64,000 nt of DNA. Source: Escherichia coli. GTDB taxonomy: Bacteria > Pseudomonadota > Gammaproteobacteria > Enterobacterales > Enterobacteriaceae. The stretch is from assembly GCF_003334785.1 (NCBI RefSeq), contig NZ_QOWV01000001.1; one strand, given 5' to 3'. Position 1 is the stretch's first letter, and every line of letters starts with the position of its first letter. Positions 2,708-3,444 of the stretch are shown here, piece by piece. Below the pieces are notes generated by a model. The model did no database searches, was not told the DNA's origin, and worked only from the letters and a program-made list of their open reading frames with translations. The position numbers were made by a program, and so were the translations under genes.

Positions 2708-2720
2708 TTCCTTTCAAATG

Positions 2721-2762
2721 AAACGGAGCTGCCATGCTCCGTTTACTTCGTCATTATTTTTA
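2721..2762 (+). terminator. Putative ychE terminator hairpin (aaacggag/ctccgttt) with downstream T-rich tract
   Basis: 8-bp inverted repeat 2721-2744 starting 14 nt after ychE stop; T-run 2756-2762 is not immediately adjacent. Confidence 0.45.
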
Positions 2763-3444
2763 CTTTGTTCCCGCGCAGTTATCAAAAGCAAAAGGAATAG
2801 GTAAAAATATTCTTCTCAAATTACAGTTAGTTATAAGGATTTCCTTAACTGCTTCTCCTCACCATCATGTTATTTTCGCCACATCATAATCCTGGGCTTG
2901 CTGAAGAATAATTGAAATGATATTAGTAATTCCACTGCCTTTGGTAGAGGAAAGTGCTAAATAATAATCAATTGTTAAATTATTGTGCATTTCACTACTG
3001 GAACTGTAATCAGAAAAGATAGACATGCTTAGCCAATCTCTATTTGATTGAATTGAAAGATGTTTGTTAAGGCATGGATGCAAGCTATAGATTCTGATAC
3101 GGTCAATAAAAGAGAATTGCTTAACAATTTTGCAAAATGTATTGGCGAGTAAGAACCGCATTTGGTACTTTCCGGGCAACCGCCAGACGATTCTTTATTG
3201 GTAATGAGAATAATTAACAATTAAAGAGCGTCGCGAAAGAATAATGTGTCTCGACAGGGGAGACACAGTACGAATCGACATAAGGTGATCGTCTGAATCA
3301 CCAGAATAAATAAAGTCGGTGATAGTAATACGTAACGATAAAGTAACCTGACAGCAGAAAGTCTCCGAGCCTGTGCAGGGTCCCAATCCGGGATTACACA
3401 TGCTGGTTAATACCAGTAATTATAATGAGGGAGTCCAAAAAACA

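Follow-up and report, generated by a model that had tools for sequence, protein, structure and literature searches.

The spacer between ychE and oppA raises the question of why an Escherichia coli genome keeps a long, AT-rich stretch of DNA in front of a single operon. Opp takes up peptides, among them peptide antibiotics, and recycles those of the cell wall. In the window, the 64,000-nucleotide stretch of E. coli DNA analyzed here, ychE ends at position 2707 and the ATG of oppA begins at 3445, so that the spacer covers positions 2708-3444 (737 bp). Its GC content is 0.373, compared with 0.498 across the whole window. No other 737-bp stretch of the window has a lower GC content: as-low values were found in 0.16% of the sliding windows, all of which overlap the spacer, and the minimum (approximately 0.32) lies at 2800-3100 inside it. 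The first-pass annotation had described an AT-rich spacer of about 740 bp and considered it larger than a simple promoter needs. Both points held, the second because a probable terminator, two promoters and a long leader fit inside.

We assign a probability of roughly 0.9 to the reading of the spacer as the complete cis-regulatory unit of the oppABCDF operon. This oppA control region has already been characterized, and the finding is real but ordinary; the oppA leader is among the better-studied leaders in E. coli. The present analysis contributes a coordinate-exact map of the published elements, covariation for five stem-loops, and an upstream half that appears to be constrained as DNA. A K-12-specific variant of the P1 -10 element and the IS5 and IS1 insertions in laboratory-strain leaders are also new.

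Two transcription starts of oppA, P1 (+1) and P2 (+246), were confirmed by primer extension by Carrier, Lalaouna and Masse in 2023 (PMC9988348); as cited in that paper, they were first seen by Igarashi et al. in 1997. A single transcription start near oppA is contradicted by these data. What had been called 'P3' (+341) proved to be a site of RNase E cleavage (PMC9988348). MicF pairs with positions +372 to +393, which are protected in lead probing, and activates translation via an adjacent A/U-rich enhancer, whose published deletion begins at +399 (PMC9988348). Furthermore, an Hfq footprint at +484 to +492 with blocked 30S binding, repression by GcvB at the ribosome-binding site (RBS), and a polyamine-responsive structure near the Shine-Dalgarno sequence (SD) have been reported (PMC9988348). 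The oppA leader is a textbook case, in which GcvB, MicF, Hfq, RNase E and polyamines converge on one mRNA.

The two starts, the RNase E, MicF, Hfq and GcvB sites and the Lrp occupancy described below are known from the literature and were mapped here onto the window. The +1 and +341 numbering was anchored by the oligonucleotide table of PMC9988348. Matches in the window were found for the oligonucleotides EM5064 (2900-2934), EM4528 (from 3274 onward), EM4516 (2970-2989), EM1320 (2937-2957) and EM5095 (3303-3373), and the sole mismatch is a K-12 SNP at 2926. The matching set thus covers the published P1 fusion, T7-oppA transcript, primer-extension primers and enhancer deletion. The reverse primer EM5064, used for the P1 promoter fusion, has its end at 2934, which gives +1. 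The T7-oppA oligonucleotide EM4528 ('+341') begins with ATCGACATAAGG, which corresponds to window position 3274. On this map, transcripts from P1 carry a leader of 511 nt and those from P2 one of 266 nt; processing leaves 171 nt. The long leader targeted by GcvB, which the first-pass annotation had named, is thereby given its lengths, with GcvB acting at the RBS (PMC9988348). The K-12 oppA region of PMC9988348 is the same locus, and the order of P1, P2, RNase E site, MicF site, enhancer, Hfq site and SD with GcvB target is identical. The spacer is 99.9% identical to those of K-12 strains, and 5424 of the 5426 complete E. coli genomes carry it with an identity of at least 95%. The coordinates of all features are collected in Table 1.

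Table 1. Features in and around the ychE-oppA spacer, in window coordinates.
Feature	Position	Strand	Basis and remarks
adhE	up to ~1700	minus	
ychT and ychE	ychE, 2060-2707	plus	
Probable ychE intrinsic terminator hairpin (aaacggagc-tgccat-gctccgttt) and T-rich tail	2721-2744	plus	sequence reading, cross-genus alignment
Spurious ORF, PGAP hypothetical protein WP_001211520.1, 98 aa	2865-3161	minus	antisense to P1 and the P1-P2 leader
Candidate CRP-like motif TGTTATTTT..(T/C)CACA	2868-2883	.	nearly invariant columns, 77 sequences
P1, -35 TTGCTG and -10 TATTAG	2898-2903 and 2921-2926	plus	17-bp spacer; hexamers inferred upstream of the published start
P1 transcription start (+1)	2934	plus	primer extension (PMC9988348), oligonucleotide-mapped
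Block A, GAAaGTGCTAAATAATAAtCAATTGTTAAATTATTGT	2950-2986 (+17 to +53 of the P1 leader)	.	37 bp; conservation 0.87 at 2958-2977
Variable P1-specific leader part	2987-3107	plus	identity 0.22-0.55, length conserved
P2 block	3108-3171	plus	AAAAGAGAAT..TTAACAA(A)TTTGCAAAATGTA, then inferred -35 and -10
P2, -35 TTGGCG and -10 TACTTT	3142-3147 and 3166-3171	plus	18-bp spacer with TG at 3163-3164; inferred hexamers
P2 transcription start (+246)	3179	plus	PMC9988348, mapped via oligonucleotide anchor
SL1	3245-3267	plus	all 7 pairs compensatory, both sides altered in up to 28 of 74 sequences
RNase E site	3273-3279	plus	cut 3273/3274, before A3274 ('+341'), in near-invariant AAUCGAC (PMC9988348)
SL2	3284-3302	plus	double changes in 5 of 7 pairs, 95.7% of cells paired
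MicF pairing site AAUAAAUAAAGUCGGUGAUAGU	3305-3326 (+372 to +393)	plus	PMC9988348
A/U-rich translational enhancer	3327-3349 (+394 to +416)	plus	PMC9988348; published deletion from +399 = 3332
SL3 (CCUGACAG ... CUGUgCAGG)	3347-3379	plus	double changes in 5 of 7 pairs
SL4 (GUCCC-AAUCC-GGGAU)	3380-3394	plus	stem 3380-3384/3390-3394, loop AAUCC
SL5 (CUGGU-UAAU-ACCAG)	3403-3416	plus	98.6% paired
Hfq distal-face site UAAUUAUAA	3417-3425 (+484 to +492)	plus	footprint (PMC9988348)
SD, C/A-rich GcvB target and start codon	3427-3460	plus	GGAG 3430-3433, 11 nt before AUG 3445
oppA	ATG 3445	plus	

Conservation of the spacer was investigated by a scan of species-representative genomes with YchE, which gave 80 loci. 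The genera covered were Escherichia, Citrobacter, Salmonella, Enterobacter, Klebsiella, Raoultella, Kosakonia, Cedecea, Buttiauxella, Atlantibacter, Franconibacter, Siccibacter, Pluralibacter and others. Wherever the locus reached oppA (76 enterobacterial loci besides that of the window), oppA follows ychE, with a gap of 664-878 bp (mostly 730-800 bp) and a spacer GC content of 0.34-0.45. The presence of the long AT-rich spacer in all 76 loci indicates that it was ancestral to the family and is not an acquired island; as judged from the 74-77 species compared, this applies to the whole spacer in Enterobacteriaceae. The length and the blocks are conserved family-wide. Identity to E. coli across genera is high at 2878-2997 (P1 and the initial 60 nt of the leader), 3098-3177 (P2 block) and 3238-3457 (processed leader), and low at 2758-2857, 2998-3097 and 3178-3237.

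At the upstream end of the spacer, both arms of the probable ychE terminator stem change yet stay paired across genera, and a run of four to eight T residues follows the hairpin in most genera. In the window strain, the tail is weak, with only TTTACTT, and a consensus terminator scan gave no call at 2721-2744.

At the downstream end, the alignment of 3238-3450 contained 74 distinct sequences and was analyzed by RNAalifold and by pair counting. Compensatory double changes were detected in 19 of the 32 consensus pairs, and 96.4% of the cells were paired. The number of double-change cells was 260, as compared with 79 +/- 10 in column shuffles, none of which (0 of 500) reached the observed value. 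In slid controls, in which the partners were moved by 1-3 columns, only 30-53% paired. The folding energy of the single E. coli sequence (3238-3460) was only modestly better than in shuffles, with a z of -1.81 and 10 of 200 shuffles as good. Thus, the comparative signal, not the folding of a single sequence, establishes the structure of the distal leader. Covariance across enterobacteria, which the first-pass annotation had proposed as a check, resolves into five stem-loops with strong covariation in the last ~200 nt. By the compensatory pairing test, the region behaves as a structured cis-regulatory RNA at 3245-3416 and fails to do so at 2934-3180.

The gtgtctc/gagacac hairpin of the first-pass annotation lies at 3246-3252/3260-3266, is found in the MFE or centroid fold and is identical with SL1. 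The loop of SL1 (gACAGGGg) is conserved and is located immediately 5' of the RNase E site. Likewise, the ggtgat/atcacc hairpin (3284-3289/3297-3302) is found in the MFE or centroid fold and is SL2. As for aatccgggatt, a hairpin does exist there (SL4), but its register had been misplaced, the palindrome at 3385-3395 being unfoldable with a 1-nt loop. A hairpin of at least 3 bp with differing stem sequences was found at SL4 in 69 of the 74 sequences, and it is absent from the Klebsiella oxytoca-group species. The closing pair of SL5 is CG in 30, UA in 26 and UG in 14 sequences. A further predicted helix, 3274-3279 with 3315-3320, does not vary in either arm and so offers no covariation. A permissive scan of 1600-5300 with Rfam 15 gave a single match with E of 1 or less, a chance mir-399 hit that scored 20 bits where the gathering score is 57. 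No Rfam model matched the leader; the covariation support for its structure is new.

The published sites lie among these stem-loops. In the 74 sequences, TCGAC of the RNase E site (3275-3279) is 100% conserved and 3273-3274 at least 90%. Within the MicF site, AAGTCGGTGATAG is invariant or nearly so, Salmonella included. When MG1655 MicF was analyzed by RNAduplex, its nucleotides 1-37 paired with 3293-3327 at -24.8 kcal/mol, as compared with -17.8 +/- 2.9 for shuffled leaders, of which 2 in 100 were as good. The recomputed MicF complementarity is therefore present, approximately 120 nt upstream of the AUG. The enhancer stretch is A-rich and its length varies across genera; the oligonucleotide EM5095 deletes 3332-3351. 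In the Hfq segment, GTAATTATAATGAG is nearly invariant among the 74 sequences. For GcvB R1, RNAduplex places the best site at 3431-3469, where it was expected, but a duplex as good arises in 88 of 100 shuffled leaders. Thus, GcvB targeting at the RBS rests on the literature (PMC9988348) and not on duplex energy. MicF as a second sRNA input, the RNase E site, the Hfq site and the DNA-motif conservation of the AT-rich upstream half go beyond the first-pass annotation.

In the unit that we propose, the ychE terminator would be followed by about 190 bp of upstream promoter DNA, P1, P2 and the leader. P1 and P2, presumably of sigma-70 type, would sit in AT-rich DNA that is occupied and repressed by Lrp when leucine is absent. 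The leader, in either of its two lengths, would be trimmed by RNase E to the 171-nt form. In its distal 200 nt, the five stem-loops would present the MicF, Hfq and GcvB sites in single-stranded form. MicF would then open the adjoining A/U-rich enhancer and raise translation, Hfq would block 30S binding, and GcvB at the RBS would repress oppA.

The 5'UTRs of rpoS, flhDC and csgD are likewise several hundred nt long, receive several Hfq-dependent sRNAs, bind Hfq directly and are processed by RNase E, as is the case for oppA. In contrast, the sequence of the oppA leader is unrelated to theirs, and MicF acts through an enhancer, about 120 nt before the AUG, and not by opening an inhibitory RBS hairpin.

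The same distal leader could be read in another way, in which E. coli uses it mainly to produce a stable, OppX-like, 5'UTR-derived sRNA sponge, which titrates MicF and thereby derepresses ompF, as reported for Salmonella, and the leader is not a cis target of MicF. In Salmonella, OppX, as described for Matera et al. (2022) in citing papers, is a MicF sponge from the homologous oppABCDF 5'UTR, and three forms, OppX-L, -M and -S (410, 190 and 109 nt), are quoted in PMC9988348 as derived from the oppA leader. The MicF site and its flanking stem-loops are almost invariant across Enterobacteriaceae including Salmonella, the RNase E site lies just upstream, and the two Salmonella subspecies of the alignment retain SL1-SL5 along with the MicF site and the RNase E motif. 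However, Carrier et al. detected no stable fragment of the oppA 5'UTR in E. coli and showed MicF-dependent activation of OppA-LacZ (PMC9988348). As far as that source goes, MicF in E. coli activates oppA translation and is not sponged, in contrast to Salmonella OppX. We therefore consider a predominant sponge role in E. coli unlikely. The sponge and cis-target roles of the leader are not mutually exclusive.

Returning to the cis-regulatory unit, the upstream half contains the promoters. The P1 block CTTGCTG...GAAATGATATTAGTAATT is ~95% conserved across genera. The -10 element of P1 is better in K-12 (TATTAT) than in all natural isolates, and the window strain carries TATTAG, so that P1 may be weaker in this strain than the mapped K-12 P1. 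The conservation of the P2 block is 0.68-0.85, with the consensus AAAAGAGAAT..TTAACAAATTTGCAAAATGTATTGGCG..TTTGrTACTTTCCGG. A motif with TGTTA-N6-YCACA lies ~50-65 bp upstream of P1 and resembles TGTGA-N6-TCACA; it is a candidate CRP-like site. Downstream of P1, block A and the P2 block are separated by a variable sequence of conserved length (about 110 bp). A generic promoter and terminator scan gave no more hits than in shuffled sequences and did not pick out P1 or P2. What that scan called as a minus-strand 'terminator' is SL1 read from the complementary strand, with a T-tail that is not conserved.

The first-pass annotation had suggested from the AT-richness that nucleoid proteins bind here. 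For Lrp this is borne out by published ChIP-seq, in which two strong Lrp peaks were found at the repressed oppA promoter (PMC10127797). Leucine abolishes both peaks and the repression, with the result that oppA is derepressed, and an Lrp that forms only dimers is equivalent to a null at oppA (PMC10127797). Lrp-repressed AT-rich promoters such as that of alaE share with oppA the two strong peaks, the leucine-sensitive repression and the need for higher oligomers (PMC10127797). Block A is likely to be a DNA-level operator, for example a putative Lrp site. The two peaks may correspond to the two conserved DNA blocks.

Could the conserved blocks between P1 and P2 act as RNA instead, with a long-range helix between block A (2949-2990) and the P2-region block (3108-3174) controlling the stability or processing of the P1 transcript? 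In E. coli, the signal is strong: the fold of 2934-3237 had a z of -3.38, with 0 of 100 shuffles as good, and the duplex of the two blocks reached -26.5 kcal/mol (z -4.0), with 29 pairs between them in the MFE structure. Across 29 genera and species, however, the mean z of the duplex was only -1.0, and most MFE structures contained no pairs between the blocks. RNAalifold of 29 diverse sequences (2930-3185) gave no consensus structure, with -0.77 kcal/mol, 0 covarying pairs and no compensatory change. Furthermore, the P2-region block is constrained anyway as the P2 promoter. Such a helix is thus strong in E. coli but not conserved, and is treated here as lineage-specific or coincidental; as a general explanation of the blocks it is quite improbable. 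Because the pairing of the two blocks fails in most other genera, a DNA-level function is favored, and it fits the published Lrp ChIP-seq (PMC10127797). The blocks would act as transcription-factor or Lrp sites, and the P1-P2 part is conserved, as far as the comparison of sequences can tell, as DNA blocks (promoters and probable Lrp or other sites) and not as an RNA structure.

The upstream part of the P2 block contains an inverted partial copy of block A. The TTAACAA-TTTG motifs lie at 2970-2982 and 3121-3133, and the distance between them is constant across at least 20 genera. It is possible, although doubtful, that block A, this inverted copy and the invariant ACAGGGG loop of SL1 are parts of an undescribed control layer. 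If so, an Lrp-bridged DNA loop might couple P1 and P2, for example, or a loop-specific factor might direct the processing of the leader by RNase E.

The spacer contains no coding gene. Three minus-strand ORFs are present as listed in the ORF track, and the first-pass annotation had regarded them as spurious. This judgement was upheld; the 2865-3161 ORF is broken in sister lineages, shows flat codon positions and belongs to no family. RefSeq/PGAP annotates it as WP_001211520.1 in most E. coli genomes. NCBIfam gave no family for any of the four spacer ORFs. A homologue search with the 104-aa minus-strand ORF returned near-identical relatives, essentially all from Escherichia/Shigella or short metagenome contigs, and one record labeled Enterobacter hormaechei. 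Stops interrupt the ORF in 5 of 5 other Escherichia lineages sampled, and substitutions are even over codon positions 1/2/3 (for example, 17/23/20 and 23/29/24 in two of these lineages). The 98/104-aa ORF is an annotation artefact, also because it is antisense to P1 and the P1-P2 leader, and this 'hypothetical protein' sits in thousands of RefSeq genomes. On the plus strand, no upstream ORF is conserved among the aligned genera. A leader peptide at 3204 (ATGAGAAT, the only conserved ATG column) was considered and rejected: the ORFs have 6-47 codons and lack an SD, and in Salmonella the ATG is replaced by TTG.

That the AT-rich core (~2800-3180) is a horizontally acquired remnant with a small, H-NS-silenced, lineage-specific gene is scarcely tenable: the GC content falls to 0.32, PGAP annotates the 98-aa ORF in most E. 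coli genomes and more than 1000 sequences belong to its protein cluster, but at least 20 genera share the spacer with its length and its conserved blocks, which makes it ancestral, and the ORF has no family, no homologue outside Escherichia/Shigella other than the Enterobacter-labeled record and the short metagenome contigs, stops in all five other Escherichia lineages examined, even substitutions over codon positions, and a position antisense to the mapped P1 promoter and leader. A horizontal-transfer origin of the AT-rich block was rejected on cross-genus conservation. For genome scans, the lesson is that unusual length and AT-richness in a spacer need not mean foreign DNA; such a spacer can be a fully functional control region conserved family-wide.

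Within block A, the CTAA at 2957-2960 is the IS5U target in reference MG1655, in which IS5 is inserted at +24. One DH5alpha assembly carries IS1 (IS1A, 3313-3321) inside the MicF site. The window strain has neither insertion, and the reference laboratory strains are atypical at the oppA leader locus.

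In the window, the -10 hexamer of P1, the oppA promoter starting at 2934, is TATTAG. This hexamer is shared by all other genera and, within E. coli, by at least 4819 of the 5422 genomes. In the K-12 lineage, it is TATTAT (349 genomes), which differs at position 2926 and is nearer to the consensus. Among the 40 TATTAT genomes listed, each one that could be identified by name was a laboratory K-12 derivative. The published result that P1 is stronger than P2, the second promoter (start at 3179), was obtained in K-12. This K-12-based result may overstate P1 for natural isolates.

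The leader of reference MG1655 carries IS5U at CTAA, which corresponds to +24 to +27 of the P1 leader, and 1.2 kb is thereby placed between P1 and oppA. In contrast, the spacer is uninterrupted (737 bp) in at least one other assembly named MG1655 (NZ_CP032667.1, L086). Thus, MG1655 stocks differ. Since the primers of Carrier et al. flank the IS5U site, their strain presumably did not possess the element, and the IS is not mentioned in PMC9988348. In a single DH5alpha assembly (NZ_CP076470.1, L085), a 768-bp IS1A was detected at AAGTCGGTG. Its 9-bp target duplication falls exactly within the pairing site of the sRNA MicF, and oppA is severed from both promoters.

In Table S3 of PMC9988348, the compensatory mutant 'oppAUCG' is assigned oligo EM4466, which matches 3413-3450 of the window. 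The triplet altered by EM4466 is AGU at 3432-3434, within the SD GGAG; the AGU with which the distal MicF site ends on its 3' side (3324-3326) is left unaltered. Either the table or labelling contains an error, or the compensation in vivo was made at the SD-proximal site.

Coordinates of features in the ychE-oppA region (L numbers are ychE-oppA loci of compared genomes)
Feature	Window	Compared locus	Source
P1 -10 hexamer	2921-2926		
Conserved block just 3' of P1	2949-2990		
IS5U site	2957-2960	L002 2000-3194	
P2 promoter block	3108-3174		
Region with deletion in Atlantibacter (equivalent)	3180-3304	L028, L035	
Conserved motif 3' of P2	3204-3224		
IS1A site	3313-3321	L085	
SL4 (equivalent absent in K. 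oxytoca group)	3380-3394	L042, L046, L050, L052, L079	
EM4466 match	3413-3450		
YchT CDS with gene name 'ychE'		L001 769-822; L086 580-633	PGAP annotation

The leader also varies in other enterobacteria. In Atlantibacter, a deletion of about 100 nt has removed the stem-loops SL1 and SL2 together with the RNase E motif, and the MicF site is merely a degenerate remnant (..CGCTGATAGC); SL3-SL5 and the RBS region are kept. The Klebsiella oxytoca-group species compared lack SL4, with AUCCAGAAAAGAGA at the equivalent position, and possess all other stem-loops. In the alignment, one genome (L066) has an insertion of about 115 nt between the MicF site and SL3, which resembles an ERIC/IRU repeat. Although 'Chryseobacterium sp. 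18061' is given as the title of its record, the ychE-oppA locus of this genome is clearly enterobacterial; contamination or mislabelling is probable.

In E. coli, the conserved block just 3' of P1 shows long-range complementarity to the P2 promoter block. The pairing contains an unbroken 14-bp helix, GGAAAGUGCUAAAU/AUUUGGUACUUUCC (duplex z -4), and is E. coli-specific, not being kept in the other genera compared.

A conserved motif, (G)ATGAGAAT.ATTTTCA, was observed about 26 nt 3' of P2. In E. coli, the ORF starting in this motif has six codons (MRIINN). The ORF has no SD, and its length is not conserved, varying from 6 to 47 codons. At the 5' coding end of oppA, an out-of-frame alternative start giving a 7-aa peptide has been reported by Ribo-RET and INRI-seq (PMC9825163); it lies in the coding region just 3' of 3445, beyond the spacer. 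Furthermore, in PGAP-annotated K-12 genomes, the 17-aa YchT CDS located 5' of ychE is itself annotated as gene 'ychE', with its product given as 'protein YchT', which is a small annotation inconsistency.
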